In this document: piece by piece, positions 366 through 31,641 of the stretch
How the letters are laid out: each line of letters starts with the position of its first letter
Numbering within the stretch: the first letter of the stretch is position 1
Assembly: GCF_045037415.1 (NCBI RefSeq)
Contig: NZ_CP173438.1
Origin: Escherichia coli
GTDB taxonomy: Bacteria; Pseudomonadota; Gammaproteobacteria; Enterobacterales; Enterobacteriaceae
DNA length: 64,000 bases
Strand: one strand, 5' to 3'
Made by a program: the position numbers and the translations under genes
The notes under the pieces: generated by a model
What the model was told of the DNA's origin: nothing
The model's input: the letters and a program-made list of their open reading frames with translations, nothing else
The model's database searches: none

Positions 366-388
366 GGACTGGAACAACACACGATTCC

Positions 389-2159: not shown

Positions 2160-2162
2160 GCC

Positions 2163-2453: not shown

Positions 2454-2461
2454 GTGATTTT

Positions 2462-2500
2462 CTCGCCTGGATGGGATATTTACATCCGGGCGAGCTTATA
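2462..2500 (+). terminator. putative intrinsic terminator after ilvN
   Basis: Inverted repeat ctcgcctggatg / catccgggcgag (one G-U wobble) immediately after ilvN stop, followed by a moderately U-rich tract. Confidence 0.45.
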
Positions 2501-5955: not shown

Positions 5956-5964
5956 GGTTCGATG

Positions 5965-7284: not shown

Positions 7285-7421
7285 TGCATCTCACCTTTTC
7301 ACTTCATATCCGGCAAAACTAAGAAATTTTCCAGGTTTTGCCTGGACGCTATCTCAGGCCTGATTTGCTGCTGATTTTTACAATGCATGCCTCACGCAGG
7401 TATTCATTTCAGGAGTAACCC
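7285..7421 (+). promoter_or_regulatory. uhpC-uhpT intergenic region, expected UhpA-dependent uhpT promoter
   Basis: 137-bp spacer with a good Shine-Dalgarno (aggag) before uhpT ATG; promoter role inferred from known uhp regulation, individual sites not verified. Confidence 0.4.
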
Positions 7422-8813: not shown

Positions 8814-8831
8814 ACGTAACTGGTGACTTTT

Positions 8832-8859
8832 GCCCGGCATGACGCCGGGCTTTTTTTTA
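8832..8859 (+). terminator. intrinsic terminator between convergent uhpT and ade
   Basis: Perfect stem gcccggc / gccgggc with 5-nt loop followed by eight T residues. Confidence 0.8.
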
Positions 8860-10626: not shown

Positions 10627-10800
10627 ATTTTTCTCATTTTGATTTTATCAATTTGATTATTATTTATCATAAAGAAACGTCGCGAGATTATTAAAGAATA
10701 TCCATTAATGTGCAATTGAAATGTGATAATTATCACTGAACCGTTGTTGTCATTTGTTTTACAAAAGCAAGGGATTAAATCTCCTCCAATGGACAAAAAA

Positions 10801-12135: not shown

Positions 12136-12187
12136 TAACTGGCGAGGGTTTCCAGATATCATGAGTTCTGATTACGCAGGAGAACTC

Positions 12188-12640
12188 ATGATCTGGATAA
12201 TGCTCGCCACGCTGGCGGTAGTGTTTGTGGTTGGTTTTCGGGTGCTGACATCCGGGGCCAGAAAAGCGATTCGCCGTCTCAGCGATCGGCTGAACATCGA
12301 TGTCGTACCCGTGGAGTCGATGGTCGATCAAATGGGAAAGTCAGCCGGTGACGAATTTTTACGTTATTTGCATCGCCCGGATGAGTCGCACCTGCAAAAC
12401 GCCGCGCAGGTGTTGCTCATCTGGCAAATTGTCATTGTCGATGGTAGCGAACAGAACCTGCTGCAATGGCATCGGATTTTACAAAAAGCCCGCCTTGCCG
12501 CGCCGATTACCGATGCTCAGGTCAGACTGGCGCTGGGTTTTCTGCGCGAAACCGAACCTGAAATGCAGGATATCAATGCTTTTCAGATGCGCTATAACGC
12601 GTTCTTTCAGCCTGCCGAGGGCGTTCACTGGCTGCATTAA
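12188..12640 (+). CDS. yicN: DUF1198-like small protein YicN (about 150 aa)
   Basis: ATG at 12188 preceded by SD aggag; single N-terminal hydrophobic helix; the upstream ATG at 12161 lacks an SD. Confidence 0.8.
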   Translation: MIWIMLATLAVVFVVGFRVLTSGARKAIRRLSDRLNIDVVPVESMVDQMGKSAGDEFLRYLHRPDESHLQNAAQVLLIWQIVIVDGSEQNLLQWHRILQKARLAAPITDAQVRLALGFLRETEPEMQDINAFQMRYNAFFQPAEGVHWLH

Positions 12641-12644
12641 AACC

Positions 12645-12718
12645 GCTTCGTCTTATCAGCCTACAGACCGCGCCTGACCTGGTGGGTGGATAAGGCGTGT
12701 ACGTCGCATCCGGTATCG
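12645..12718. repeat. REP-like extragenic palindromic element
   Basis: Contains tcttatcagcctaca and ggataaggcg...cgtcgcatccgg, resembling E. coli REP consensus; lies between yicN and the toxin-antitoxin insertion. Confidence 0.55.
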
Positions 12719-12755
12719 GAATTGACAGTAGGTGAACGCATTATCTACGTTCTAT

Positions 12756-13079
12756 TTACAGCAGCACCTCCAGCCCGTGTTTTTGCACAATGCTGAGCAG
12801 TTTTAATGAAATGCCATTGGGGCGTTTAGCGCCACTTTCCCATTTTTGTACAGTTGAAACGCTGGTATTGAGATAGTGAGCGAAGACGGGCTGACTCACT
12901 TTTAATTTTTCCCGCAGTGCTTTTATCTCAACAGGTTGTAAGTCTTGCACGCTGGTCAGGCAGGCTTTGTCAAAAGTACGCATCGTTTCGGCAGAAATAG
13001 CATCGACTCTGGACAATCCAGCCGCTGCGCTGTGAATAGCTTCAAATGCAGGACTTTTAAATTTAGTTTTTGCAGTCAT
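12756..13079 (-). CDS. HTH (Xre/NadS-like) DNA-binding antitoxin candidate (107 aa)
   Basis: C-terminal HTH segment (SQPVFAHYLNTSVSTVQKWESG); 17-bp overlap with the upstream toxin-like gene. Confidence 0.7.
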   Translation of the reverse strand: MTAKTKFKSPAFEAIHSAAAGLSRVDAISAETMRTFDKACLTSVQDLQPVEIKALREKLKVSQPVFAHYLNTSVSTVQKWESGAKRPNGISLKLLSIVQKHGLEVLL

Positions 13080-13422
13080 AGCAGATCTCTGTCAGTTCTT
13101 TAGTGTTAATCATTGCTGTCAGTTGGGCTTTCGTCAGGAAGGCATAATGCTTTGCAAGTTCACGAAACCCAGCCAGTTCCTGACTATTAATGTTCGACAT
13201 ATCCTGTTTTGCATATAAAAACGTGTAAAACCAATTGCTTCCCCCTTTCGCCAGAATAATTGCACGCTCACGATTTCGGTGAAGGCGCTTTTTAAAAACG
13301 CCACCACCAAGTACATCAGCTTTACCTTGTTCCGTTTCTAAAATGGCCCGGCACAACTCTTCATCTGTTATTGCATGAGACCTGGCTTCCCTTGCAAACC
13401 ATTTGGTTTTAAACACGCGCAT
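13063..13422 (-). CDS. RelE/ParE-superfamily toxin candidate (119 aa)
   Basis: Small basic protein MRVFKTKWFAREARSHAITDEELCRAI... typical of RelE-like toxins paired with HTH antitoxins; toxin-first order as in HigBA-type pairs. Confidence 0.65.
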   Translation of the reverse strand: MRVFKTKWFAREARSHAITDEELCRAILETEQGKADVLGGGVFKKRLHRNRERAIILAKGGSNWFYTFLYAKQDMSNINSQELAGFRELAKHYAFLTKAQLTAMINTKELTEICYDCKN

Positions 13423-13649
13423 ATCGTTGAGATCCTGTTATTAAAGTATATCACCAAGTGCAATACTTTATCCCTTATTCCCAACCTAATCGCGAAAATG
13501 CATATCACCTTGCCCTATGATTTTTATTTCTTCGAGCAGCCTCGAACTTTTCCCACAACACCGTAAAAGTTGCAAAAACGTTAAATACGTCACACATTTC
13601 AATGTTAAAGTGGTCGGCTTTCCCTCTGAAACATGCCACGGGTAACACC

Positions 13650-14840
13650 ATGAGTGAATTTATTGCTGAAAACCGCGGCGCGGATGCCATCACCCGACCG
13701 AACTGGTCAGCCGTTTTCTCGGTGGCATTTTGCGTTGCCTGTCTTATTATCGTTGAGTTTTTGCCCGTCAGTTTGTTGACGCCAATGGCCCAGGATTTAG
13801 GCATTTCGGAAGGGGTTGCCGGGCAATCGGTGACCGTAACCGCTTTTGTGGCGATGTTTGCCAGTTTGTTTATTACCCAGACCATTCAGGCCACTGACCG
13901 CCGCTACGTTGTCATTCTGTTCGCCGTTTTGCTGACGCTTTCCTGTTTGCTGGTTTCCTTTGCCAACTCATTCAGTCTGTTGTTAATCGGTCGCGCCTGT
14001 CTGGGGCTGGCGCTGGGCGGATTCTGGGCGATGTCGGCGTCGCTGACCATGCGTCTGGTACCGCCGCGTACGGTGCCGAAGGCGCTGTCGGTGATCTTCG
14101 GCGCGGTTTCTATTGCGCTGGTGATTGCCGCGCCGTTGGGCAGTTTTTTAGGCGAGCTTATCGGTTGGCGCAATGTCTTTAATGCGGCGGCGGTGATGGG
14201 CGTGCTGTGTATTTTCTGGATTATCAAATCACTGCCTTCGCTGCCAGGCGAACCTTCGCATCAGAAACAAAATACTTTCCGCTTATTACAACGTCCGGGA
14301 GTGATGGCCGGGATGATCGCCATCTTTATGTCCTTTGCCGGACAGTTTGCTTTTTTCACTTATATTCGCCCAGTGTATATGAATCTGGCGGGATTCGGTG
14401 TTGATGGCTTAACCCTGGTGCTGCTGAGTTTTGGTATCGCCAGCTTTGTCGGGACATCGCTTTCGTCGTTTATTCTCAAACGTTCGGTGAAACTGGCCTT
14501 AGCGGGCGCACCGTTTGTGCTCGCCCTGAGCGCGCTGGTACTGACGCTGTGGGGAAGCGATAAAATTGTTGCTACTGGTGTGGCGATTATCTGGGGGCTG
14601 ACCTTTGCTTTAATTCCCGTTGGCTGGTCAACGTGGATCACTCGCTCACTGGCCGATCAGGCAGAAAAAGCCGGATCTATTCAGGTGGCCGTTATTCAGC
14701 TTGCCAATACCTGCGGTGCGGCAATCGGCGGTTATGCGTTGGATAACATTGGTCTGACTTCGCCGCTGATGTTGTCCGGCACATTGATGTTGCTGACTGC
14801 ATTGTTGGTGACTGCAAAGGTGAAAATGAAGAAATCCTGA
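13650..14840 (+). CDS. nepI: MFS purine ribonucleoside efflux pump NepI (396 aa)
   Basis: 12-TM MFS sequence; start at ATG 13650 ([13 protein letters not shown]...); ORF track start 13602 is likely an extension. Confidence 0.88.
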
Positions 14841-14880
14841 TATCAGGTAAAGAAGCGTTGGTCAGTGGTTGTTGCCGTTC

Positions 14881-15174
14881 TTACATATCCGGGCATTCTA
14901 CCTTACCCAACGCTTCCCAATAATTGCTCTGATTATTACGTTCCATCGCTACGATGGCTTCGCGTATGTGTTGTTTATTGCTTTCATCAGACAACATTAA
15001 CTTTTCCCACGCTTCATCTGATAACGATGCCTGCGGGGTACAAATTTTACGTAAATCTTGCAATACCGTGGTTTTCTCTTTTGCCGACTGTAGGGAACTG
15101 AATGGCGACTCGGCCTGAGAAATGGCTGGAAAAATCAGGAATATGGTAATCATGAGTAGCATCGTTGGCTTCAT
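14881..15174 (-). CDS. yicS: small secreted protein YicS (97 aa)
   Basis: MKPTMLLMITIFLIFPAISQA signal peptide; ATG at 15174 verified on sequence. Confidence 0.8.
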   Translation of the reverse strand: MKPTMLLMITIFLIFPAISQAESPFSSLQSAKEKTTVLQDLRKICTPQASLSDEAWEKLMLSDESNKQHIREAIVAMERNNQSNYWEALGKVECPDM

Positions 15175-15395
15175 AGCGGCAACCTTCTGCAAATGTGCAT
15201 CGAATGAAGCATAAGTGTAGTTTGCTTTTGCCGCTCTCATCATGCTGTACGAAAGGTGTTTGCGTGGTCAGTAAGAAGTGCCAGACTTTATATTCCACTT
15301 TTATTCCTTTTTATTCTTATCGATAGCGTTTCGTTTTTTAAACTGCAGCGACCTTACCGCTATAGTCAGGTAATCATTAATAAAAGGATAAAAAA

Positions 15396-16214
15396 ATGAA
15401 ACTGACAACACATCATCTACGGGCGGGGGCCGCATTATTACTGGCAGGAGTTCTGCTGGCAGGTTGCGACCAGAGCAGTAGCGATGAAAAGCATATTAAA
15501 GTTGGCGTTATTAATGGCGCAGAACAAGATGTCGCGGAAGTCGCTAAAAAGGTAGCAAAAGAGAAATATGGCCTCGATGTTGAACTGGTAGGATTTAGCG
15601 GTTCGTTGCTACCGAACGATGCGACAAATCATGGCGAGCTTGATGCGAACGTCTTCCAGCATCGACCCTTTCTTGAACAAGATAATCAGGCGCATGGTTA
15701 TAAACTGGTAGCGGTGGGAAATACGTTTGTCTTCCCCATGGCGGGTTATTCCAAAAAAATCAAAACCGTGGCGCAAATAAAAGAAGGCGCGACAGTGGCG
15801 ATCCCCAACGACCCGACTAACCTTGGTCGTGCGCTTTTACTGCTGCAAAAAGAGAAGCTAATTACTCTGAAAGAGGGAAAAGGGTTATTACCTACCGCGT
15901 TGGATATAACCGATAATCCACGCCATTTGCAGATAATGGAGCTGGAAGGGGCACAGTTGCCACGTGTACTGGACGACCCGAAAGTGGATGTAGCGATTAT
16001 CAGCACCACTTACATCCAGCAAACAGGACTTTCTCCGGTTAACGACAGCGTATTTATTGAAGATAAAAATTCGCCGTATGTGAATATTCTGGTGGCACGG
16101 GAAGATAATAAGAATGCAGAAAACGTGAAGGAATTTCTGCAATCTTATCAATCACCCGAAGTCGCTAAAGCGGCAGAAACCATCTTTAACGGAGGCGCGG
16201 TGCCTGGCTGGTAA
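15396..16214 (+). CDS. nlpA: lipoprotein 28, methionine-binding NlpA family (272 aa)
   Basis: Lipobox LLAGC after signal peptide; MetQ/NlpA family sequence. Confidence 0.92.
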   Translation: MKLTTHHLRAGAALLLAGVLLAGCDQSSSDEKHIKVGVINGAEQDVAEVAKKVAKEKYGLDVELVGFSGSLLPNDATNHGELDANVFQHRPFLEQDNQAHGYKLVAVGNTFVFPMAGYSKKIKTVAQIKEGATVAIPNDPTNLGRALLLLQKEKLITLKEGKGLLPTALDITDNPRHLQIMELEGAQLPRVLDDPKVDVAIISTTYIQQTGLSPVNDSVFIEDKNSPYVNILVAREDNKNAENVKEFLQSYQSPEVAKAAETIFNGGAVPGW

Positions 16215-16217
16215 TTC

Positions 16218-17141
16218 TCACTCATGCCGCGCCGGACGATTTATTTTTCTGGCGCGGCGGCGGGAATCCATTGAAATCAAAATCACCGATGACAGAATCA
16301 GCAGCGTTCCCAGCCAGTCCGGCAATGTGAAGGTGATCCCCAGCAACAGCAAAGAGAGCAGTGCGCTACTTAATGGTTCTGCACAGCTTAAAATGCTGGC
16401 TTTTGGACCACCAATTAATTGTGCTCCTTTCAGGTACAGACTAAATGTCAGGGACGTACCAATGACCACCAAATAAAAAAACGCCAGAATCAAACTGCCG
16501 TTAACGACAAAGTTTGTCCCTTGTCTGGCATAAAAGGGCAGCAGGATCAGACCGCCAATGAGCATACTCCAGCCGACGACCGGTAACGTGCCATAGCGAG
16601 CAATCAGCGTTGAGGGATAGGTGGTATAGAATGCAGCAGCAAATGCCGAGGCAATGCCCCAGAATAACGCGGCAGGAGAGATCGATAATGACGTCGGATT
16701 ACCGTGTGTCACCAATAAAAAAGTCCCGATCAGCGATGTCAAAATAGCGCAAAAAACCAGGATGCCGGGGCGGGATTTACGCACCAGTGAGAACCAGGCG
16801 ACGATAATAGTCGGTGAGAGGAATTGCAGCACCGTTGCCGTGGCTGCGTTCGATTTTTCGATGGTTAGCAAAAAAGTGAGCTGTACGGTTAGCGCGCCAA
16901 CCACGGAAAAAATCAGTAGGCTAATGGCATCTTTGTGATTGTTAATAATAGAAAAGATTTTATCACCATGAACAAATGATAGCGTCAGCAGAATCAATCC
17001 GGCGAATATCAAACGCGTCATAGTCAAAAACTGCGACGACATCTGGCTTTGCTCCATGATGTATTGCGCGCAGACCCCTGAACTTCCCCACAACACGGCG
17101 GCAATCAGAACGTTCAGCATCCCCTTTCTGGTGGAACCCAT
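16218..17141 (-). CDS. yicL: EamA/DMT-family transporter YicL (about 307 aa)
   Basis: 10-TM DMT sequence; ATG at 17141 ([11 protein letters not shown]...) verified; last recognisable core gene before the island. Confidence 0.88.
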
Positions 17142-17318
17142 TTTTCCCTCTGCATACTGTTTTGTCTTTTCATCAATATACGTTAAGGATACCACTACCG
17201 ATGACGGTGAGGGAGTAGAGTAATCAATCAGTTTTAGTGAATGGAGGAAATAATGACATATAACAATTATTCATATGGTGTTTAAAAAACCTCACTAAAA
17301 ACTCAATATGAAATTTAA

Positions 17319-19350: not shown

Positions 19351-19548
19351 TCACCGGTTCTGTTGCAGAAGCTGTAGTTGGCGCAGGGTACGGATATCTT
19401 CCCTGGCCTGTTCAATGCAGGGCAACAGTGCTGCTGAATCCGTTCTATCCTCATCGTTGTCGAAGATAATCCCGGATTCACAGTCGATATTGTCCTGCAG
19501 CCACGCAATCAGAATATCCAGCGCCGTTTCTGTCGTTAATGATTTCAT
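19351..19548 (-). CDS. small hypothetical protein (about 65 aa)
   Basis: Start taken at MKSLTTETALDILIAWLQ...; co-oriented downstream of the YeeW-like gene. Confidence 0.4.
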   Translation of the reverse strand: MKSLTTETALDILIAWLQDNIDCESGIIFDNDEDRTDSAALLPCIEQAREDIRTLRQLQLLQQNR

Positions 19549-19565
19549 GTTGTGAATTTCCCTGA

Positions 19566-20054
19566 TTACCAGTCGAAAGTGGGCAGACCCGGCAGACATT
19601 CAGCGCAGGCATCCAGATGAATGAGACTGACGCCATAACGGCGAATGAGCGTGACGATCAGACGACGAAACGTTTTTGACAGGCCCAGGCGTTTAAGTCG
19701 CAGAACCGGGTACGACCACGCATCGGTACGTAACAGATATCCGCTACCGGTAAAATGAATCCATTCTGATTCGCCGAAGTCATTCGTCTGATGTGACAGC
19801 GAGTACAGCCAGGCGTTGTCCTTTGCCGTGATATGCGCGGTACTGCAGCGTATGCCGGTAAGGGCCGCAGATGGTGGCGTGCGCTCTGCTGATGTCCGGT
19901 CAGATTCATCAACAACACGAAGGGAGTAACCGTTATCGCAGACCACGTTAATCAGTTCAGCGAGAGTAACACCATCGACGTCAACGACAATGCGCCCCAT
20001 GTTCAGTGCCTGCACGTTAATGCTGTCGGCTTCCAGCGTCAGGGCCAGTTTCAT
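19566..20054 (-). CDS. YeeW-like protein following the toxin gene
   Basis: ORF overlaps the cbtA stop by 4 bp, in the position occupied by yeeW-type genes in CP4-44-like cassettes. Confidence 0.5.
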   Translation of the reverse strand: MKLALTLEADSINVQALNMGRIVVDVDGVTLAELINVVCDNGYSLRVVDESDRTSAERTPPSAALTGIRCSTAHITAKDNAWLYSLSHQTNDFGESEWIHFTGSGYLLRTDAWSYPVLRLKRLGLSKTFRRLIVTLIRRYGVSLIHLDACAECLPGLPTFDW

Positions 20055-20428
20055 TGTTTCGCCCCCGGATGTTTACCCAGGGTAATGTTATTTACCGTTC
20101 TGTAATTGTCGCGGGCCATCAGGCCGGTTGCCCGGCGGGCCCGGAGGATATCAATACTGTTTATTAACTGAGAACGGGTACAGGCGCTGAATCCCGGCTG
20201 GTCGGTACGTACCAGTGCGTATTTTTCAACGAGAAAGTTCACCGCATCGCACAGTGAAATGCCTGCCTCAATATGCTGCTCAATCACACGTTCATCAGCG
20301 AACGGTGTGTCATTCAGTGTGAGGCCGTAATGCTGGTCCAACAGTCGGGTGAGCAGTGTCTGCCAGATGGTGACGGGAGACGGGCAGCGCGATGCCTCCC
20401 GTACGTGTGTGTCAGGTAATGTTTTCAT
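20051..20428 (-). CDS. cbtA: CbtA/YeeV-family toxin (cytoskeleton-targeting), about 125 aa
   Basis: MKTLPDTH...LLDQHYGLTLNDTPFADERVIEQHIEAGISLCDAVNFLVEKYALVRTDQPGF, as I recall for YeeV/YkfI/YpjF paralogs; ATG at 20428 verified. Confidence 0.85.
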   Translation of the reverse strand: MKTLPDTHVREASRCPSPVTIWQTLLTRLLDQHYGLTLNDTPFADERVIEQHIEAGISLCDAVNFLVEKYALVRTDQPGFSACTRSQLINSIDILRARRATGLMARDNYRTVNNITLGKHPGAKQ

Positions 20429-20474
20429 CTTAAGTTCTCTGTAACTGGTAGTGCTAAAGGTGAGATATTCGGGG

Positions 20475-20849
20475 TTATGAGGTGGTTGCGGGTGCCAGTG
20501 TCGGATAAACAGCCATATAAACGTAACCACAGCTGCCGAGGGTGTCGGCTTCGCAGGTCAGCCCTCTGGCATACAGCGTGACGGTATGCTGATGGCGGGG
20601 ATTCAGTTCACCGCTGGTGAGCATGAGTTCCAGTTGTTTCATCAGCAGCGGAAAGGCCTGGTCCAGATGATACGCATCCGCGTCGCTAAACTGCCCCCTG
20701 ATACCGGCGCGGTCGGCAAGGTAATGCAACTGATTGCCCTCCTGCACCAGACGTGCCCCGAAACAGGGCGTCACGGTGCAGGGGAGCCCCCACCAGGGGC
20801 GGTCGTTGTTGTTGTCGGGATGCGTTGTCCCGGGGTGTGTGTCTGACAC
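20475..20849 (-). CDS. cbeA: CbeA/YeeU-family antitoxin (124 aa)
   Basis: MSDTHPGTT...DRPWWGLPCTVTPCFGARLVQEGN.LHYLADRAGIRG, as I recall for YeeU/YfjZ; directly upstream of cbtA. Confidence 0.85.
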   Translation of the reverse strand: MSDTHPGTTHPDNNNDRPWWGLPCTVTPCFGARLVQEGNQLHYLADRAGIRGQFSDADAYHLDQAFPLLMKQLELMLTSGELNPRHQHTVTLYARGLTCEADTLGSCGYVYMAVYPTLAPATTS

Positions 20850-20928
20850 GATAAAATCCTCACAGAAAATCGGTTAAGAATGCTCCGATGGTGGCGATAA
20901 TTCGGCTCATCAGAATGCCCTTTCTGAT

Positions 20929-21150
20929 TCAGTTCAGGGTAACGCTCATCAGACGGACATACGGACCAAAACTGTCCTTACGGCGTTCAGCAAACACGGC
21001 CAGCACACCGGGAATATCCTGCACTTCACGGCCGGTATACGTATCCGTGCTACCGTGCCAGCGGTATTTACCGGTACAGAACGGAAAAAGACGGGATGCA
21101 GGATGCTGTTGGTGAATACGCATGGCTTCACCACGGGTGATGATTTTCAT
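20929..21150 (-). CDS. DUF987 (YeeT-like) protein, 73 aa
   Basis: Small ORF in the conserved position between the RadC-like gene and cbeA. Confidence 0.6.
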   Translation of the reverse strand: MKIITRGEAMRIHQQHPASRLFPFCTGKYRWHGSTDTYTGREVQDIPGVLAVFAERRKDSFGPYVRLMSVTLN

Positions 21151-21212
21151 AATGGGATACCTCTGAAGACAGAAGATAAAAGTGAAAACAGGTGTGATGT
21201 GGTTGTGACGGG

Positions 21213-21689
21213 TTAAAGCAGACCGTGTTCGGCAAAGGAGAATACCTGGTTGCCACCGACTATCAGATGGTCCGGCACCCGGATATCCACCAGGGCCAGC
21301 GCCTGTACCAGACGTTCAGTGATAAGCCGGTCTGCCTTACTGGGGGTGACTTCACCGGACGGGTGATTGTGCGCCAGCACCACGGCAGCGGCATTGTGGT
21401 ACAGGGCACGTTTAATCACCTCCCGGGGATGGACTTCTGTGCGGTTGATGGTGCCTGTGAAGAGGGTTTCACCCGCAATCAGCTGATTCTGGTTGTTCAG
21501 ATACAGCACCCGGAACTCTTCCCGCTCCAGTCCTGCCATGTTCAGAATCAGCCATTCCCGTGCCGCATGCGTGGAGGTGAAGGCCACACCGGGTTCATGA
21601 AGATGGCGGTCCAGGGTTTTCAGGGCCCGCAGAATGAGACTGCGCTCTCTGGTTGTCATCTCTCCGGGCAGAAAGGAAAGTTGTTGCAT
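21213..21689 (-). CDS. RadC-like JAB-domain protein (YeeS/YfjY-like)
   Basis: JAMM-type motif (HNHPSGEVTPSKADRLIT); start placed at MQQLSF, the ORF track start at 21734 would overlap the upstream gene. Confidence 0.8.
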   Translation of the reverse strand: MQQLSFLPGEMTTRERSLILRALKTLDRHLHEPGVAFTSTHAAREWLILNMAGLEREEFRVLYLNNQNQLIAGETLFTGTINRTEVHPREVIKRALYHNAAAVVLAHNHPSGEVTPSKADRLITERLVQALALVDIRVPDHLIVGGNQVFSFAEHGLL

Positions 21690-21703
21690 TGTGCTTCTCC
21701 GGC

Positions 21704-22183
21704 TCAGTCGATGATGCGCATAATGGCGCTGCATTCAGGATGCTGCAGGGCGTAATCCCGCAGCCGGTAATAATGGACCGTCATGGCATAACACTCCGTA
21801 CGACAGGCATGATGGCTGTACGTCATCAGACAGGCGGCAATACCGGCGGCTTCCGGGCTCATTTCAGCGCGGTTACCGTTCATGGCATTGAACAGTACCC
21901 ATGTTTCGTCATCATCGTCATCCGGTTCGGGTGCCATAAATGCCCCGCCGTTGTTCAGGGTATACAGATTCCAGATACCACCGCAGTAGTCTTCACACAG
22001 ACGGTCCATCCAGCCGAAGACACGGGGCTCCAGGGTCACCCACTGTGGAATGAGGCCAAAATGCTGCGGCCAAAAGCTGATGCGCTGTTCATCAGGGACG
22101 AGGCTGGCAACCAACTGAGGCGGATTATTCTCTGGTGTTGTAGCTGAATAAATTGTGGGGGTATTCTGAGAAACGCTTTTCAT
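21704..22183 (-). CDS. antirestriction protein, KlcA/ArdB-like (YfjX-like), 159 aa
   Basis: Acidic stretch (PEPDDDDDETW) and overall resemblance to YfjX/YeeR paralogs. Confidence 0.65.
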   Translation of the reverse strand: MKSVSQNTPTIYSATTPENNPPQLVASLVPDEQRISFWPQHFGLIPQWVTLEPRVFGWMDRLCEDYCGGIWNLYTLNNGGAFMAPEPDDDDDETWVLFNAMNGNRAEMSPEAAGIAACLMTYSHHACRTECYAMTVHYYRLRDYALQHPECSAIMRIID

Positions 22184-22264
22184 GAGATAACTCCTTAAAT
22201 AACAAATAAAAGTGTGTTTTTCAGGAACGAAAGCTGAATGATTCCCTCACTCAGGGAAACGGCA

Positions 22265-23083
22265 TCAGCGCAGGCTCTCCAGCATCGTTTCTGCCATCAC
22301 CCACAATGCGCGGTTGAGTTTAATATCGGTGTCGATGCTGTGAATGGCCCGGGTATGGATACGTTTTCCTTTTGCACTGCGACCGGAAATCCCGCCTTTC
22401 AGCATATTCTCCTGGATGGTCTGATATGCGCTCCACAGGTCCTTACCGTAATCCTCCCGGCGTCGCGGCGTCAGAATGTCGGCGGTGGTGACGGGCTGAT
22501 GTTCGTCACCATAACGGTAAGTCAGTGCCGCCTGTGCCAGCGCCTGGCGTGCCGGTGGCGGCAGGACCAGCGACTGCATGGCATCACGCTTCTCCTCTAT
22601 CCGGTCAAACACGCCCACCACTTCGTAAGCCCCTTCAATGACTCTGTCCACCACATTTCCCCGGTGCGGAACACGCACTTCCCCCAGAGACTGGCCACAG
22701 ACGCACCCGTTCTGGCAGACGAACCTGAAGTAACCCGGCAGCATCTGATAGCTGGAGGTACCGTCATGAGAGTTGAGCAGAATAATTTCAGGGACATGTT
22801 CTCCGTTTATCTCTCCGGCCCGCCGCAGACGCAGCATGTGTTTGGTGTATTCCCGGCGGCTCTGGTCGCGCACACGGGGCTGGCAGGCGAAGAACGGCTG
22901 AAAGCCTTCCCGCTGCAGATTTTCCAGGACGGTAATGGTGGGAATGTACGCATACCGTTCACTGCGGGAGGTGTGCCGGTCTTCTCCAAAAATACTCGGG
23001 ACGTGGTACATCAGTTCTTCGCGTGTCAGTGGGCGCTCCCGACGGATCTGATTTACATGACCAAAACGACTGGCTAATTGCAT
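22265..23083 (-). CDS. DUF932 (YfjQ/YafZ-like) protein, 272 aa
   Basis: Length and position within the CP4-57-like cassette; family assignment by recollection. Confidence 0.6.
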   Translation of the reverse strand: MQLASRFGHVNQIRRERPLTREELMYHVPSIFGEDRHTSRSERYAYIPTITVLENLQREGFQPFFACQPRVRDQSRREYTKHMLRLRRAGEINGEHVPEIILLNSHDGTSSYQMLPGYFRFVCQNGCVCGQSLGEVRVPHRGNVVDRVIEGAYEVVGVFDRIEEKRDAMQSLVLPPPARQALAQAALTYRYGDEHQPVTTADILTPRRREDYGKDLWSAYQTIQENMLKGGISGRSAKGKRIHTRAIHSIDTDIKLNRALWVMAETMLESLR

Positions 23084-23172
23084 ACTTTGCTCCTTATGAA
23101 TGAATTAGCGGTATAAACGAAAAAGCCGCGTCTCCCGGAGAAGACGCGGCCTGATGGATGAAATGAAGACGT

Positions 23173-23406
23173 TTATTGCCTGAGAATTCCCTCACTGGCG
23201 AGATACGAATTTAGCTGTTTTCCGGCATCAGGTTCAAAATTCCAGCACCGCCAGCGTAGCTGCCCTTCGGCATTGCGGATAACCAGCCGGAAATGCGTTC
23301 CCTGGTCATCTTCAATAAGCACATTGCGGTAAGCTGTTGTGACGGCAACCGCCTGTTCGCGTGAGAAAGGGCCTTCGGGCAATAAAACAGGGTGGCAGTC
23401 CGACAT
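23173..23406 (-). CDS. small conserved hypothetical protein (77 aa)
   Basis: Co-oriented, tightly spaced ORF within the cassette. Confidence 0.45.
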
Positions 23407-23411
23407 ACCGA

Positions 23412-24089
23412 CTATTTTCCGATAAATTCAACGCTGGCGCCGGTGGCATTACCGTCAGCACCAACCGTGACGGTCACTTTGTCGTACGCACGGTCTTCAG
23501 GATTGAATACTTCAAACTCAACCTTATTGCCTTTTACTTCGTAAGAGCCAAAATCAGCGGTTTCTGTTGTTTCCTCGTCATATTCCCGGGCGTATGCCTG
23601 CCGGGCAGCCTGCAGGACGGAATCTTTATTAATAGTGGTCGTCTGTTTCGGGGAAAAACCGGCAAGTGATGTGACAAATTTCGGACAGACCTTCAGCATA
23701 TCACCGCGGGTGAATTCCATTCGTACACCAAATGCCTGTAAAACGGACACATCACGCTCTGCTATGGAGTGAACGGCTTTTTTGACCATTTCCGGCGCCT
23801 GTCCGATTTCCACCTCAACAGCCCTGAATCCCGTCTGCTGATTACACATTTGTGATGTGGGGATCAGGTTACCGTTAATACTGATACGGCTGCCCAGGAG
23901 CGTCTGTACACCATTCGGGCATCCCTGCATCAGGCCAGTAATACCAATCGTGCCATTTTTCAGCATTACCAGCGCCTGACCATCTTCCGTCATGGTCTGA
24001 CACCAGCCGTTTTTGACAGCCCAGTTGCCGGCGGAGGCGGAGAATGATGCCACAGTGAACAGCAGGGGAAAAAGAGCTCTGGTATTCAT
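23412..24089 (-). CDS. secreted hypothetical protein with signal peptide (about 225 aa)
   Basis: Start placed at [20 protein letters not shown] (signal-peptide-like); ATG at 24087-24089 verified on sequence. Confidence 0.5.
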
Positions 24090-24236
24090 GACTGACCTCT
24101 GAAATGAACGTACGGTGTTATTGATAATGATGGAAGGTATGCAGTGACTGTTCAGGGAATGACGTAGCCGTATATTTAGTTTTCTGTTCAACATATTGTC
24201 TCCATACCTGTCGGGACGGCTTTGGCAGGCCGGCGA

Positions 24237-24917
24237 TCACAGGTTAAAGGTGTTGATAAGTTTATGGATGAAAGAGAAATGTGGCAGGGCGGAGATAAAA
24301 CGCTCTTCAGCGACCAGACTGTGGATGTGGCCTCTCCGTTCAAACCGTTCTGATGTCAGGCTGACTGATTTGATATCTGCCAGAGGAAAGACCTGCAGTT
24401 TTCCCTTCTGTAACGCGATCAGATACCAGCTACCGCTGTAATAAATGAGCCGGCAGGGCTCCAGTGACGGATACCATCGCTCAGTCATCAGAGAGATGTG
24501 GATACACTGTCTTATTGCCAGGATGAGTTGCGAGAAACACTCGGGGAACGTTGCAGTGATATCCGGCGCCGGTAGCCAGATAAGGCAGGGAGAGGGCTCC
24601 TGGTTGTCGGTAAGACAGGTTATCAGTCGTCCGTTCCGGAGCGGAAGTATCCGTGCGATCCCGGTATTCTGTATAAAAGAAAGCATTTCAGGGATCGCAC
24701 CTGGGCTGCTCTGTCGTCTGAGACTGTACCGGCCATTTCTGTACTCTAAGTCCAGGTGAACCAGACGCTGATGAAAATCGCGCTGTAAGGTACGTTCTGT
24801 AACACCAAATTCATCTGACAGTGTTTTTAGTGACAGAGATTCTCCGGCCATCAGTCGGCTGATAATGAGTGATAAGCGAACCGCCAGGCGATCATGCCGG
24901 GAACGATTATCAGACAT
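24237..24917 (-). CDS. WYL-domain transcriptional regulator (YfjR-like), 226 aa
   Basis: N-terminal HTH (LSLKTLSDEFGVTERTLQRDF) and C-terminal ...GSWYLIA... WYL-type segment. Confidence 0.7.
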   Translation of the reverse strand: MSDNRSRHDRLAVRLSLIISRLMAGESLSLKTLSDEFGVTERTLQRDFHQRLVHLDLEYRNGRYSLRRQSSPGAIPEMLSFIQNTGIARILPLRNGRLITCLTDNQEPSPCLIWLPAPDITATFPECFSQLILAIRQCIHISLMTERWYPSLEPCRLIYYSGSWYLIALQKGKLQVFPLADIKSVSLTSERFERRGHIHSLVAEERFISALPHFSFIHKLINTFNL

Positions 24918-25119
24918 AGATGTGCACTCCGTAAGAAAACATCTTTTATTTCATGATGTTATTATGCATCATGATGTTGAAAGGATGTGTCGCATCCGAA
25001 TAATCAGAAATAAAATGCAGCAGAAAAAATATTCCTTTAATTATCTGATTTTTAAGCAGGGTTTCATAAAAAGAAGAATGCTTGTTAATCCAGCGACACA
25101 TCCTGTCGGCGTGAGTGTG

Positions 25120-26004
25120 TCAGAACAGACGATCCCACAGTGTGACCAGCAAGTGGATAATGCGGTCCCGGGCCTTACGCAGAAGCTGTAACATCCAGGC
25201 CGGAAAGCTGAATTGGGCAACGGCAGCGTCAAAGCTTTTCCCGATGGCGTCACCAAAAGTTTGTTGTGCGTGTTTCCGGGCCTGTTCAGAGCGGTTTTCC
25301 CCCCGGATATGTGAATAAACTGCGCTGGTTGCCTGTGGTGGCAGTGCGTGGATCATCAGCGACACCAGTGCCGGAAGATTCCAGCCGACAGGTGCGGCAA
25401 CGGAGAGTACCGGAAATGATGAAGGGAACAGGGTTGCCACCCGGGCTGTTACTGTTGCCAGTGAGAGTTCCTGCTGACGGGACGGGCATTTTTCTGTGTC
25501 GTTCCATTCTTCAGCAGGAAACACGCGATCGGCATGGCTGAGAACAAACAGAAAACGCGAGGGATCTGCACCTTCATTCAGTAAAAACTGATGCATGGCA
25601 ATATCGGCAGCATACGCACGTTCATCAGCCCGCAGGATCCAGATAATCAGATCCAGTTCCGGCAGTAACTGACGATAAAGCTCCCGGTATTCCTGATCAT
25701 GCTGCGGTGTCTCACCAATGCCGGGCATATCGACCAGCGTCATTCTGCGTTCACCGAGCTGCAGGGTAAGACGATGAGCCTGGCGGGTGCAGCCGTTCAG
25801 GGGATGCGTGGCGCAGATACGGGACTGAAAAATGGCATTACACAGACTGCTTTTGCCGGTGCCGGATTTACCCATAATGCCAATTACGGGCTCGTAATGA
25901 ATAACACCGTGGAGATGTTCAAGGATTTTCTGGCGAATTTCTTCAGGAAGAAACGTCAGATATGATTTTACTTGTGCAGAGAGGGAAGAATGGCTGAATG
26001 ACAT
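25120..26004 (-). CDS. YfjP/YkfA-like GTPase (294 aa)
   Basis: Walker A GKSGTGKSS and DMPG G3-like motif; first gene of the minus-strand cassette. Confidence 0.75.
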   Translation of the reverse strand: MSFSHSSLSAQVKSYLTFLPEEIRQKILEHLHGVIHYEPVIGIMGKSGTGKSSLCNAIFQSRICATHPLNGCTRQAHRLTLQLGERRMTLVDMPGIGETPQHDQEYRELYRQLLPELDLIIWILRADERAYAADIAMHQFLLNEGADPSRFLFVLSHADRVFPAEEWNDTEKCPSRQQELSLATVTARVATLFPSSFPVLSVAAPVGWNLPALVSLMIHALPPQATSAVYSHIRGENRSEQARKHAQQTFGDAIGKSFDAAVAQFSFPAWMLQLLRKARDRIIHLLVTLWDRLF

Positions 26005-26188
26005 ACCGGTATCCTGTTGATTTCGCTGAACCGGATCACACTAATCCGGTTTATCATTCAGGTAATATGGACGTGAAAAATGATGGAATGTCTGAATTAC
26101 GGACATGATTGTTAAAGTGTAATGGAGTATGAAGTGAGTTTTTCCGAACGGGAACTAATGACATACTGCGGTTTCAGGAGATGAGAGG

Positions 26189-27319
26189 ATGACCGGACGT
26201 AAAAACAAATGTGTCAGAAAAAATTGTAACAATCAGGTTTTCTCAGTAAAAATGGCAGTGGAGAAAAGACTGTGCAGAAAACATTATGAGAGGTTTTGTG
26301 AGCTCAAAAAAAGAAGAGAGCAAAATCCTGTTCACAGATTAAATGAAGCATTGCCAAGAAAGATAAAAGGACCAAAAAGTAAGAAAAAATTAGTAAAAGA
26401 AAGAGAAATCATTAACAGCAGAAAAAAACATAAACAGGAGCAGGGACCATCGCTGACTGAACTTAATAAAAAAGTTCGTGAGATACTGAAAACTCCTGCA
26501 TGGAGAACGCTGGAAACGAGAATTCGAAGAAACGGAATCACATTTAAGTCAAAAGCAGAGTTAGATGCGCTTTCTGAACTTTATGCAATTTATTCATGGG
26601 TTTCATATTGCAAACGGGGCGATAATTATTCTGTGTGGTTTTTGAATTGTCCGGATGTAAATATAAACCTTCATGTGTGCGAATGCCGGTCTTCTGAAAG
26701 CGATTGTTATCTGCCATCTCGTTTTATTATTCTTCCAGCTCCATTAAGGCAAAAAGTAAAAAGAAAATACTCTGCTAATTCGTCTGGGGTACCAGGACAT
26801 AATGATTCAAAAAGTCTTTATAAGACAGTTTTGTCTGTTTGTGGTGGGAAAAGAGAAACCGAAATGTTCTTTTATTCATTGCCAGTAAAGACTAATCATC
26901 ATCCTTACTGGATTAAAAGTGGTGTGGTTAAAAGATTCCCTCCTGTTTTTGGTTTGTTGTTTTATGAACAGGAAAGATTAACAGGAGGTGTTTTTCGTTA
27001 TGTGTTGATAAGATTTTATAATACTTTTAAAGAGAATTTGTTTTTTGTTGAGATTGTATCGTGCTGTTTTCTTGTTGAGCTTTTTCATGATATTGATTCA
27101 TTTTTTATAAATCAACGATTAAGTAAGCTGGAAAGTTTTATAGATAAGTGGAGGGAGGGTAAAGAAATCTGGATAAAAGTATATTTACAACTGATACATA
27201 CTATATTGGGAATAACTGAAACAGAAAAACTCGTCAATCTATATAATTCATTTTTTACTGATAAAGTGGTTCTCTGGGATGAATCAGTAAAAAAAGTTAA
27301 GTGGATTTATGAGAAATAG
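26189..27319 (+). CDS. orphan hypothetical protein, Lys-rich with Cys-rich N-terminus (376 aa)
   Basis: AT-rich ORF; N-terminus CVRKNC...CRKHYERFC suggests a zinc-ribbon; no family recognised. Confidence 0.45.
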   Translation: MTGRKNKCVRKNCNNQVFSVKMAVEKRLCRKHYERFCELKKRREQNPVHRLNEALPRKIKGPKSKKKLVKEREIINSRKKHKQEQGPSLTELNKKVREILKTPAWRTLETRIRRNGITFKSKAELDALSELYAIYSWVSYCKRGDNYSVWFLNCPDVNINLHVCECRSSESDCYLPSRFIILPAPLRQKVKRKYSANSSGVPGHNDSKSLYKTVLSVCGGKRETEMFFYSLPVKTNHHPYWIKSGVVKRFPPVFGLLFYEQERLTGGVFRYVLIRFYNTFKENLFFVEIVSCCFLVELFHDIDSFFINQRLSKLESFIDKWREGKEIWIKVYLQLIHTILGITETEKLVNLYNSFFTDKVVLWDESVKKVKWIYEK

Positions 27320-28817
27320 TACCATTTAACTGAAAGCCACCATAACGTCTTTTTGACTACATTTATGATAATGCGTCTCATTTTGTTTTCGTTTTTTTGT
27401 TCAGGGAAATTTTCCGAACATCAGTGATAATGAGGGTTTTGTTGTTTTTGCTTCTGCAATGTTTGAGGACTGTTCCTGGAGACGATTCGTTGCTTGTGAG
27501 CAAGAGGTGGTCCGCTTTACTGGACAAGTTTTGCATTTGTTGAGTGGTGAAATGGAAGTAAAAAGAGCCCCTTTCTGGCAATGGTTGAAAAAGTCAGTAG
27601 CGTGTGACAGTAAAAGCTAACATAAAGTGATTATCGTATGATTATGACAATGACTTATAACTTTTATGAAAAGAACAACAGAAACTACGAAGCCATAGCA
27701 GATTCCTGAGACCATGTTTTCTGAGGTAGAGAAAATAATTCCAGAGTAAATCTGTTCTGTTTTTAGGACAGAAAACTCCATGTTGGCTGTAAAAGTGAAA
27801 AATTAACACCCAGTATGTATGGAAGTCTGAAGATGTTGAGAATGTCGGTATGATACTATATACACATATTTTACTAAGTATTTTTACTAAGCATTTCAGT
27901 AAGTGTTATACACGTATTTTCATAAACACTTGTAGAAGTGTTTTCGTTAAGCATTGCTATACACATCCAGTTTAGTAAATCTTTACGTTAACTAAATCAG
28001 TTTAATGCTGCTGTAAAACCTTTCTGCTTCAGCAATCAATCTGCTATTCGATTTTACTGATGTTACGTTTAACCTTTCCTGAGATTTCGAGTTTTGAAGT
28101 TAGCATGAGAAAAGTATCTTTACGCTAAATCAACCCGAACTTTCCTGAAGTAATCTGACGTTCTTTTCGATGTGCTTACGACGATTCTGTTAAACGACTT
28201 TCTGGATGTTTTGATAACAATCAGATTGAGGCATTAACGATTCCTGACGTTTTCTTTTCCGTGTAAGGTCATTCTTTTTGTCATGAGGTTTCTTCTTGCA
28301 TTGCGAAAGTGTGATGAACGGTTTTGATATTTTGATTCAGATGAGGTTTACGTTATCGCAGTTAATCGTTTTTATGGTGTGTTGAAAAGTAACGTTTTCA
28401 GGATAAGAAAATCGATTCTGATATTGGTAGTTTTTGTTCTTGTGGTGGGGTTATCTGTAAACAGGTTTTAAGCGCGCTATTCGGCTCTGTGATCGAGTTG
28501 TGTGGTTAAGCTGTAGGTTTGGTGTTGTTGTTGATTTGCATTGCCAGGAAGCGTTCTGGTTGTGTTTCTGGTGTTTTGTTCGAATGTTCAGTGGATCCTT
28601 TCCCTTCTGACTTTTCTCGTCGTCCATGTCGTTTTTAAATCCATTCATGCCGTTGTTTTACGTTTTACTACCGTGTGCAGGATTATCTTTTCGCTGCGGG
28701 ATGGTTTGTTCCGTTCAATCAGGAGCCATTGGTGTTGCTCAATGGTGAAATACCGTAAAGTTTTACCGCGGTGATGAATGATGTGAAGTCAATCCAAATC
28801 AACGGAGATCTCTCATC

Positions 28818-29549
28818 ATGAATCAATCAATACACAATGCTTACTGGTTATCCCGCTTTGAAAGTATTCTCAACAGTGCCCTGGCGCAACACCGTGCCGT
28901 CTCGTTAATCCGGGTGGATTTACGTTTCCCTGAGTATATGCCTGTCACCATCATGGATCCCGATCCGGATTCAGCGGTGATTTCTCGTTTTTTCGAATCC
29001 CTGAAAGCCAAAATCCAGGCTTACCAGCGGAAAAAACGGCGTGCCAACAAGCGTGTGCGCGCAACCACTCTGCGTTATTTCTGGTGTCGGGAGTTTGGCA
29101 AGGAAAAAGGCAGGAAACATTATCACGTGATATTACTGCTCAACAAAGATACTTGGTGTTCACTCGGGGATTTCAGCGAACCGTCTTCGCTGGCGACGAT
29201 GATCCAACAGGCATGGTGCAGCGCTCTGCATCTTGAGTCCTGGCAAGGCGATGGCCTGGTCCATTTTTCCAGGAGGACGCCTTTCCGTAAACCAACATCG
29301 TCTGATGCTCGCCCTTCTTCCGATGATACGCCTGTGCCTGGTGGATGTTCTGAAACCAGGAAGGTTTCAGACAAAAAGTCTGGTGAAGCCGCTGTTCTCT
29401 GGATCAAGCGTGGTGATGTGGAAGCGATGCAGAAAGCCCGGAACAGAGCCAGTTATCTCGTGAAAAATGAAACGAAGTTGCATGATGGTTCAGGTCAACG
29501 TAATTATGGTTGCAGTCGTGGGCCGGGGCGTCTACTGGATGGCAGGTGA
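28818..29549 (+). CDS. YagK/YfjJ-family (inovirus Gp2-like) protein, 243 aa
   Basis: Resembles YfjJ/YagK paralogs (LIRVDLRFPE..., KHYHVILLLN); SD ggag 10 nt upstream. Confidence 0.7.
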   Translation: MNQSIHNAYWLSRFESILNSALAQHRAVSLIRVDLRFPEYMPVTIMDPDPDSAVISRFFESLKAKIQAYQRKKRRANKRVRATTLRYFWCREFGKEKGRKHYHVILLLNKDTWCSLGDFSEPSSLATMIQQAWCSALHLESWQGDGLVHFSRRTPFRKPTSSDARPSSDDTPVPGGCSETRKVSDKKSGEAAVLWIKRGDVEAMQKARNRASYLVKNETKLHDGSGQRNYGCSRGPGRLLDGR

Positions 29550-29876
29550 ACCCTGTAAAACAGCATCCGATGCCTGAGTTTATGCCAACGCCCTTAGCTC
29601 GCTTTCTGAAAAGTCGTCCTGAAGTAATGCAATGGATTGCCATCTACTTCCGTTCGTGACACATAAGTCGAAAAACGTTTGGTTGTTCTGGTTATTTGCA
29701 TTTACTGCCATTCATAGAAATGAACAGATCGATTGGTAGGACTCAAATGTTATAGCGTCTCTCTTCTCATAGTCTGCTTTGTACCAGACGCGGAATCCCC
29801 TAATGCTGGTGTACAGGTTCTGACTCATTTCCTCCCCCACTTTCATCCCGTTATACTGTGAAAAAAGGAGGTAGGC

Positions 29877-30119
29877 GTGAAACTGAAAATGCAGGATTTG
29901 AGGCTGTTTAATATCGTGTTCGAGAGCGATCCTGGCTGGATACTGGATTTCTCTAACCGCACCTTGTCTGCTTTTTTCGATGAAGAATTGAACATTGATA
30001 TTGATGATGAACGTTATCAGAAAGAGGGGGCGTCAAAAGCCAAACGAGTTAGATGCTTGCTGAAACAGGTTGATCGTGAGAACCGCTCTGCGGGTTCTTG
30101 GTGCGCTCTGGCAGTATAA
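29877..30119 (+). pseudogene. possible N-terminal fragment of frameshifted Mrr-like gene
   Basis: 80-aa ORF ending where the downstream endonuclease-like ORF begins in another frame (overlap 30070-30119). Confidence 0.3.
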
Positions 30120-30756
30120 AACGGAATCCATGCCTGAACAGGCTGAACAAAGCCGTAATGACTATCTTGCACTGATTTCCCGCTTAGAAAACGCTGACAC
30201 CGATGAAGCCAAAGGCGTTAAGCCTGTCCAGGCATGGCATGGTGTTGACTGGCATTCACTTATCGCTGAAATGAACGAGATGAAATCTCTGCCGCCACAT
30301 CCACGTGGTTTTCGGTTTGAAGCCTGGCTTGCTGAACTGTTCAGTATCTTTAAGCTTGCTCCTCGTTCGTCTTTCCGAAATACAGGAGAACAGATTGACG
30401 GAAGTTTCCGGCTGAATGATGAATTTTACCTGATGGAGGCAAAGTGGCATCAGAAAAGAACGTCGGCTGCCGACCTCCATGTATTTGAAGGAAAACTCAG
30501 TACCAAGGCAACCTGGACACGCGGTGTTTTTATCAGTTGGATGGGGTTTACGCCTGAAGGCCTGACGGCTTTTGGTAAAGGGAAGCGGGTTATCTGTGTC
30601 AGTGGTTATGATCTTTACCACTCACTGAATCATAGGATCCCTTTACCCGACCTTCTGGATGCTAAAACCCGGCACGCGGCTGAAACGGGAGAGCCCTATG
30701 CTGAGTTCGACCGACTATATGCACTGAAAGACAAACAGTTCGGCACGCTGAAATAA
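30070..30756 (+). CDS. restriction endonuclease-like (Mrr catalytic domain) protein
   Basis: PD-(D/E)xK-like pattern GEQIDGSF...LMEAKW...GVFISWMGF typical of Mrr-type nuclease domains; possibly frameshifted relative to the 29877 ORF. Confidence 0.5.
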   Translation: MIVRTALRVLGALWQYKTESMPEQAEQSRNDYLALISRLENADTDEAKGVKPVQAWHGVDWHSLIAEMNEMKSLPPHPRGFRFEAWLAELFSIFKLAPRSSFRNTGEQIDGSFRLNDEFYLMEAKWHQKRTSAADLHVFEGKLSTKATWTRGVFISWMGFTPEGLTAFGKGKRVICVSGYDLYHSLNHRIPLPDLLDAKTRHAAETGEPYAEFDRLYALKDKQFGTLK

Positions 30757-30770
30757 CGGGTTGGGAAGCG

Positions 30771-31363
30771 ATGACCTGCTCCCCGTTGTTTCACACAAAA
30801 TCGTGTACAGGGTCGAAGTTCTGGCTCAATGTGCTGGCTGAACTGAAAAACAGCGGCCTGAACGATATCCTTATCATCTGTGCAGATGGCCTGAAAGGCT
30901 TCCCAGATGCCATCAACACAGTATATTCGGAGACCCACATCCAGTTATGCATCGTGCATATGGTGCGCAACAGTCTGCGCTTCGTGTCATGGAAGGACTA
31001 CAAAGCCGTCACTCGCGACCTGAAAGAGATTTAATCAGGCACCCACGGAAGAGGCAGGCTAGCAAGCACTAGATAAGCCGACGCTGGCAGGCTAACTGGC
31101 CGAATCTTACTACGTTCTTCGCTTATCTGACGGACATCCGCAAAGTGATCTATACGACAAATGCCATCGAGTCACTAAACAGTGTGATCCGCCATGCGAT
31201 CAAAAAGCGTAAAGTGTTCCCGACAGACGACTCGGTGAAAAAAGTGGTGTGGCTGGCAATCCAGTCTGCGTCCCAGAAATGGACAGTGCCATTGAAGGAC
31301 TGGCGTATGGCAATGAGCCGCTTTATTATCGAGTTCGGTGACCGCCTGAACGGTCACTTCTGA
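30771..31363 (+). mobile_element. IS256-family (mutator-type) transposase remnant
   Basis: Two ORF fragments (LKGFPDAINTVY...LCIVHMVRNS and ...TTNAIESLNSVIR...) match conserved IS256-family transposase segments; internally deleted. Confidence 0.65.
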
Positions 31364-31641
31364 GAAAAGGCATTTACACAGAATCCTAAACAGGTTCCGA
31401 CATTCTTCACTCATACTAAACATCTTGTCACTTGACGCAGGGCTGAAAGTTCTACAACAACGGTATACCAATATGATATTGGTTTACTAAATTTTTTGGG
31501 GATCCATCAGGGAATTTCTCCCTATATTTCCAGACTCCTGTTATCATTTAACCCATTACTGATCCGCTGCCACATATATACCTGCGGCGAGCGATAACCT
31601 AGAGCTATGCTGCATTGTAATGTTCGATCGCTACTGCATGG

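Follow-up and report, generated by a model that had tools for sequence, protein, structure and literature searches.

We found that the two overlapping open reading frames (ORFs) at positions 29877-30756 of the window, that is, the 64,000-nucleotide stretch of Escherichia coli contig NZ_CP173438.1 (assembly GCF_045037415.1) analysed here, are the halves of a single 292-codon gene and not a chance pair. This copy is probably a recently inactivated, single-gene nuclease of the defence type, carried by a mobile element and disrupted by a genuine mutation, a reading that takes in the case of a hypermutable site discussed below. The intact protein combines an AbiJ-NTD2-type module with an Mrr-type DNase; E. 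coli Mrr itself is not its orthologue.

The disrupted gene occupies 29877..30756 on the plus strand, and its 880 nt correspond to an intact coding sequence of 879 nt plus one base. The upstream ORF (29877..30119, plus strand; 80 aa in the ORF list) begins at a GTG that is also the start of the intact protein in RefSeq, and a Shine-Dalgarno-like AAGGAGG could be read from the sequence at 29863..29869 (plus strand), 7 nt 5' of this codon. It encodes 68 native residues of the N-terminal domain, followed by 12 out-of-frame residues (NRSAGSWCALAV) and a TAA. The downstream ORF (30070..30756, plus strand) lies in the other frame, is listed with 228 aa from a TTG, and has alternative starts at GTG 30076 (226 aa) and at its first ATG, 30130 (208 aa). 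It contains the end of the N-terminal domain, a linker and the entire nuclease domain. The two ORFs overlap by 50 nt, and both were found exactly as in the preliminary description, which had an 80-aa ORF ending at 30119 in a different frame and overlapping the ORF at 30070. Scans for promoters and terminators over 29500-30950 gave background-level signals only.

An intact counterpart is present in E. coli strain 219 as WP_001519098.1, a “restriction endonuclease” encoded by a 879-nt CDS (positions 6078-6956 of locus L002), and its 292 residues agree well with the length of about 290 aa predicted earlier for the joined ORFs. Alignment of the two alleles showed identity in 890 of 891 columns and one gap, which bears out the proposed frameshift. 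The sole difference is a change of GAGACC to GAGAACC, and both pairwise and multi-strain alignments place the extra A at 30081..30082 (plus strand), in codon 69, where the window has AA instead of a single A. The allele of strain Esc28, 100% identical to the window here, is annotated by PGAP/RefSeq over 880 nt as “restriction endonuclease, frameshifted”. The break falls within the conserved N-terminal domain. In an alignment of 27 sequences, the invariant residues G20, F25, F34, E37, Y47, G51, S53, K54, R57 and R59 lie 5' of it and L77 and W78 lie 3', so that the interruption sits between R59 and L77/W78. Since invariant residues flank the break on both sides, the upstream ORF belongs to the same protein. 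The possibility raised at the outset, of a stand-alone downstream protein beside an unrelated upstream ORF, is not what we found: both halves match a family that is conserved from end to end.

We then determined how common the two states of the gene are. Of 5,426 complete E. coli genomes searched by megablast with 29800-30800, 464 have the region; the match spans 1001 bases in a few records, and 1000 bases at 99.9% in most. A probe of 81 nt spanning the lesion, extra A included, had exact matches in 12 genomes out of 434, namely ten “Esc” strains and strains 446 and 463, and matches with one gap or difference in 421, while the reciprocal intact 80-mer was found exactly in 405 of 457 E. coli genomes. 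A protein search yielded 780 homologues at E<=0.001. Among the matches listed, the non-fragment homologues are single ORFs of ~286-300 aa with ~96-100% query coverage and identity down to 47%, and come from Enterobacter, Klebsiella, Cronobacter, Cedecea, Photorhabdus, Yersinia, Pantoea, Erwinia, Pectobacterium, Providencia, Aeromonas and Acinetobacter. The frameshift is not conserved among the homologues, in which intact single ORFs dominate.

Analysis of the C-terminal half of the protein indicated a nuclease. A Pfam scan of the intact protein gave a match to the Mrr catalytic-domain model, Mrr_cat (PF04471), with an E-value of 6.5e-5; the matching region covers residues 144-248, or 30307..30621 on the plus strand, and thus lies in the ORF at 30070 to which a PD-(D/E)xK-like catalytic domain had been attributed. 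Mrr_cat was also found in all 27 aligned homologues at E<=0.001 (best 2.8e-10). The codons for E148 (30319-30321), D174 (30397-30399, in GEQIDGSF), E187 (30436-30438) and K189 (30442-30444), the last two in L-EAKW, are all on the plus strand and intact in the window, and the four residues are invariant in the 27 sequences, which are 47-88% identical. An alignment-based AlphaFold model of the intact protein (pLDDT 87.5, pTM 0.74) has structural neighbours of the restriction-endonuclease fold and contains the alpha-beta-beta-beta-alpha-beta core. The C-terminal domain is therefore predicted to be an Mrr/FokI-like PD-(D/E)xK DNase with a complete E-D-ExK active site. Searching the PDB by sequence, whether with the protein itself or with a profile, returned chance matches only (E>=0.3). 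The similarity to the FokI and R.BspD6I cleavage domains and to AF1548 is at the level of the fold only, with 12-14% identity; moreover, enzymes of the FokI/R.BspD6I type have sequence-specific recognition domains or partner subunits, whereas the window protein has neither.

The N-terminal half is of a different nature from that of Mrr. E. coli K-12 Mrr, a Type IV modification-dependent enzyme, has in common with the window family the Mrr_cat domain, the D...ExK residues, a similar size and a two-domain layout. However, Mrr proper carries an Mrr_N winged-helix DNA-binding domain, and Pfam detected no Mrr_N in the query or in the 27 homologues, in which the only matches besides Mrr_cat were stray ones to SpoVR_C. 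The earlier characterization of the joined product as a typical two-domain Mrr-like protein was hence not correct, the N-terminus being of the AbiJ-NTD2 type instead. Scans of the intact protein with NCBIfam, PADLOC 2.0 and PHROGs gave no model matches (for PADLOC, none at E<=0.1). A model of residues 1-108 (pLDDT 91, pTM 0.84) showed a five-helix bundle with helices at 5-15, 30-38, 54-64, 67-84 and 86-104, the last of them ending at residue 104. A conserved G-[YW]-[IV]-L-D-F motif (residues 20-25) follows helix 1 and is coil in the monomer model.

Several sources label members of the family “DUF3644”. AbiJ-NTD2 has been described as a mostly helical module of ~100 aa, fused to the AbiJ HEPN domain, to Mrr-family restriction endonucleases and to TIR domains, and many of its sequences are said there to have been wrongly placed in DUF3644 (Anantharaman et al., 2013, Biol Direct 8:15, PMC3710099). 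The all-helical N-terminal domain of ~105 aa seen here matches both the published description and the DUF3644 mislabelling, which supports its assignment to the AbiJ-NTD2 type. Among 1.84 billion cluster representatives, a profile built from residues 1-86 matched 2006 at E<=0.001, and these proteins vary in length. The best 120 matches of a word-indexed N-terminal profile search were all <= ~160 aa and so uninformative on fusions. From the 2006 matches we inspected 27, chosen mainly for unusual length, and found C-terminal Abi_C (AbiJ HEPN) in 4-5, TIR or TIR_2 in 5, Mrr_cat in 1-2, and SIR2_2, SAVED and Guanylate_cyc in 1 each, as well as a hydrolase. As these 27 were picked for variety, they establish that such fusions exist and not how frequent they are. 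The PADLOC effector models ThsA-SIR2 and ThsB-TIR match sister proteins through their C-terminal domains only.

In the part of the 2013 paper that deals with AbiJ-NTD2, the fusions to Mrr-type enzymes have the same order of domains, a helical module of ~100 aa and then an Mrr-type PD-(D/E)xK domain; the same module is joined there to Abi_C and TIR, under the same DUF3644 mislabel (PMC3710099). The prototypes named are BF1118 and gi 91784007, to which we liken the window family through the published description. The SIR2, SAVED and cyclase fusions found here are not listed in that part of the paper and, unlike the published fusions, the window copy is frameshifted. Lactococcal AbiJ and other Abi proteins that pair an N-terminal domain with an effector follow the same logic, being borne on mobile elements and placing a variable N-terminal module before a toxic effector. 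The effector of AbiJ is a HEPN RNase, whereas that of the window family is a predicted DNase of the restriction-endonuclease fold. A search of the literature on the AbiJ-NTD2 and Mrr combination found nothing beyond Anantharaman et al. (2013).

The gene lies on a genomic island of the CP4 type. The region 18543-64000 and the selC-associated island of strain 219 share 99.99% identity; three transitions, the extra A and an additional IS copy set them apart. In the chromosomal backbone (1-17170, ilvBN-uhp-ade region), on the other hand, identity to strain 219 is only 94-97%. The presence of the same island in a different chromosomal background thus implies recent horizontal transfer. The upstream neighbour of the nuclease gene (28818..29549, plus strand) encodes a 243-aa protein assigned by RefSeq, Pfam and PHROG 25019 to the inovirus Gp2 or YagK_YfjJ family, which is typical content of CP4-type islands. 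Downstream, RefSeq annotation of identical sequence gives a decayed IS256-family transposase fragment (30810..31363, plus strand) and a frameshifted pseudogene whose product is named only “transposase” (31522-32297, minus strand); these two mark a decaying cargo region.

Other parts of the island were also surveyed. A CP4-type core on the minus strand (19351-26004) encodes DUF957 and DUF5983 proteins, a CbtA-family toxin with a YeeU/CbeA-type antitoxin, DUF987, JAB/RadC-like and antirestriction proteins, DUF932, DUF905, an HTH regulator and a YeeP-like GTPase. An entire Type I restriction-modification operon occupies 50314-56815 on the minus strand (hsdR, 50314-53550; hsdS, 53550-54836; hsdM, 54836-56815), adjoining RhuM-family and RelB/DinJ antitoxin genes, and the island therefore carries further defence cargo. 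We also observed a perfect tandem direct duplication of 1548 bp at 42934-46028 (copies 42934-44481 and 44481-46028), where strain 219 has a single copy. Each copy contains the transposase ORF of the IS110-family element ISEc45 (43187-44320 and 44734-45867, minus strand), and the duplication may represent either a tandem IS dimer or an artefact of assembly.

Distant homologues are found in other surroundings. In Enterobacter IncFII-type plasmids (L015-L019) a homologue that is 48% identical lies at 5001-5873, adjoins an EcoRII restriction-modification pair, and shares 4 nt with the end of the gene for a 216-aa serine resolvase, with which it may be co-transcribed. The Acinetobacter homologue sits in an AlpA-type island. 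The Gp2/YagK_YfjJ gene was considered as a functional partner of the nuclease and rejected, being missing beside the distant homologues, which have other neighbours. These differing neighbourhoods indicate a stand-alone cargo gene of mobile elements.

The extra A is found in four contexts. The first is the window, with its island of the strain 219 type, and the second is the island of the Esc strains, which matches the window without a difference over 29301-31040 and has different DNA further downstream. Comparison of Esc28 with the window showed 38 substitutions at 28994-29300, within the Gp2/YagK_YfjJ gene, between identical flanks (23800-28993 and 29301-31040); this pattern clearly points to a recombination patch in that gene. 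The third and fourth contexts, strains 446/463 and a contig of GCA_037022885, have a second gene haplotype in common. The two haplotypes, A52 (window and Esc) and T52 (446/463 and GCA_037022885), are distinguished by SNPs on both sides of the extra A, at 30030 (51 bp upstream) and 30387 (306 bp downstream), and each has an otherwise identical intact counterpart.

Both states of the gene also occur within the Esc series, a set of near-clonal genomes of ~5,156,5xx bp, where the extra A is present in ten assemblies and the gene is intact in at least two (Esc8 and Esc10). Over 50 kb, Esc28 and Esc10 differ by no substitution and by two 1-bp indels, namely the extra A and one base of an A9/A10 run. 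This run lies at position 4133 of the Esc28 locus (L004), between a GNAT acetyltransferase gene and ghoS. Of seven Esc genomes examined, Esc28 alone has the A9 form, which illustrates 1-bp indel noise or variation; the run is therefore uninformative as to a subclade or noise.

Further variants affect the same site. A change of GAGACC to GAACC, a net loss of one base at the equivalent of 30078-30082, was found in L011 (GCA_037022845) and in L012 (Logan SRR34090816), which are 100% identical. L011 and the GCA_037022885 contig with the extra A belong to one project series, and the GAACC allele could be derived from the +A allele through loss of one GA unit. In GCA_963967675 and GCA_022015375 (L013/L014), an IS with a 340-aa HTH_38 and rve transposase is inserted after the equivalent of 30079, within 2 bp of the +A site, and truncates the nuclease gene after codon 67. 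Other lesions of the gene are a different -1 frameshift (P0128) and, seen at the protein level, C-terminal truncations (P0026, P0049 and P0040) that end in unrelated residues. These additional independent lesions fit a dispensable, often-lost gene. The clustering of lesions is in part a matter of ascertainment, since the variants were found among N-terminal fragments of 55-98 aa. The recurrence of the extra A may reflect either a real hot spot, possibly with selection against the nuclease, or a context-specific consensus error.

Such an error is the most serious competitor to a genuine mutation, although we consider it unlikely. Here, the extra A would have arisen at this one site in sequencing or consensus building, for example through long-read basecalling in a particular sequence or methylation context, and the gene would be intact and functional. 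The coexistence of both states in the near-clonal Esc series is in keeping with this, as is the finding that the only differences between Esc28 and Esc10 over 50 kb are 1-bp indels, one of them in an A9/A10 run. Likewise, a systematic error would account for the extra A turning up in projects unrelated to each other and on both haplotypes, each with an otherwise identical intact counterpart, and a Dam site (GATC, 30072-30075) lies 6 nt 5' of the lesion. However, the shared 45 kb of island differ from strain 219 by three transitions and one indel; so few differences show that the assembly is not indel-noisy, and an error would need a unique context. The lesion site is not a homopolymer run either, and Logan assemblies of other runs (technology unspecified) reproduce both the extra A (L010) and GAACC (L012). 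AGACC is the methylation site of EcoP1I, which prompted us to consider a motif effect. An error driven by the AGACC motif in general was rejected as unlikely, as 50 other AGACC sites and 8 other GAGACC sites in the same 45 kb are unaffected.

A more specific form of the genuine-mutation reading, which we regard as quite improbable, holds that 30079-30082 is a hypermutable on/off switch, contingency-like but driven by a palindrome and not by a repeat, through which independent E. coli lineages would repeatedly lose, and perhaps regain, the reading frame. The same extra A occurs on the A52 and T52 haplotypes, both states are seen inside the Esc clone (a pattern that assembly noise would also produce), and the GAACC variant and the IS insertion strike the same 3 bp. 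An imperfect inverted repeat, AGAACCGC-tct-GCGGGTTCT (30079..30098, plus strand), has the lesion in its left arm, and its stem is lengthened by the extra A and also by the GAACC variant. DNA folding gave -4.1 kcal/mol for the wild type, -5.5 for +A and -4.5 for GAACC, with z ~ -2. The two small variants thus gain the stem only ~0.4-1.4 kcal/mol; this is a weak effect, and a link between the hairpin and mutagenesis is a weak idea that we infer from it. The hairpin itself is weak (-4 to -5.5 kcal/mol), and no simple-sequence repeat tract is present at the site, where A becomes AA within GAGACC. Template switching at the quasi-palindrome is a similarly weak idea as the source of the extra A: by reasoning and not by computation, copying of the right arm predicts +AC and not +A. 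In addition, the cluster of lesions owes something to the way in which the variants were found, the extra A is carried by only 12 of ~450 complete genomes, and the allele might also be transferred by short-patch recombination among copies of the island, of which genomes with the nuclease gene sometimes hold two.

It is very improbable that the two ORFs form a functional split system of an 80-aa N-terminal fragment and a separately initiated nuclease of 208-226 aa. In-frame starts are available at 30070, 30076 and 30130, and the entire catalytic domain lies within the downstream ORF. However, the break occurs inside the conserved helical domain and not at the domain boundary near residue 105, and a convincing Shine-Dalgarno sequence is absent before 30130. 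No lineage with a conserved split was found, and those database entries of 208 and 226 aa that were traced are gene calls from frameshifted alleles.

Least tenable of all is the production of full-length protein from the window allele by programmed +1 ribosomal frameshifting or transcriptional slippage, which has geometry only in its favour (a +1 shift anywhere in 30064-30116 would fuse the frames) and which we rejected as next to impossible because intact single ORFs dominate and the overlap is devoid of recoding signals: the frameshift is missing from ~90% of E. coli copies, the listed homologues elsewhere are uninterrupted, 30064-30116 contains no prfB-like CUU UGA, no X XXY YYZ heptamer and no A/T run of at least 7, and a shift at any place but codon 69 would swap out conserved residues. 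The preliminary description had left open whether the gene is an inactivated nuclease or a case of programmed frameshifting. Inactivation is upheld by the proportions of intact and +A alleles among the complete genomes, and programmed frameshifting falls with the absence of a recoding motif.

Taken together, these results favour the genuine inactivation of a mobile defence-type nuclease gene, and a mechanism can be proposed. In the intact 292-aa protein, the N-terminal AbiJ-NTD2-type module is followed by a linker and by the Mrr/FokI-like DNase. By analogy with the fusions to AbiJ-HEPN, TIR, SIR2, SAVED and cyclase domains, the module would most likely act as a sensor or regulator that keeps the nuclease in check, and a trigger, such as phage or other invading DNA, would release the nuclease to cut DNA. 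The extra A in codon 69 shifts the frame and ends translation after 80 residues, 68 of them native, so that the presumed sensor domain is cut in two and ribosomes that begin at the original GTG no longer reach the nuclease domain. A nuclease-only product could nevertheless arise if translation began internally, at GTG 30076 or ATG 30130. The lesion, the make-up of the domains, the catalytic residues, the fold, the prevalence of intact alleles and the modular fusions are direct results of the analysis, whereas the defence role, the sensing function and the loss of function are inferred; for this architecture, an action in biological conflicts was predicted in 2013 (PMC3710099).

The finding is an ordinary one, as the allele is already flagged as frameshifted in public annotation and the architecture of the family was described computationally in 2013. 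It adds one more decayed cargo gene to a mosaic E. coli island, which in itself matters little. The recurrence of the extra A, if a consensus artefact, would call for caution with pseudogene calls from long-read assemblies; if real, it would be a small example of site-specific recurrent gene inactivation, and, if the hot-spot reading were true, of a contingency-like switch of a defence gene that does without a simple-sequence repeat. The intact AbiJ-NTD2 and Mrr family is missing from the models of PADLOC-DB 2.0. Its members occur widely on plasmids and islands in Enterobacterales, Acinetobacter and Aeromonas, and the family is a predicted candidate for a single-gene anti-phage or anti-plasmid system.
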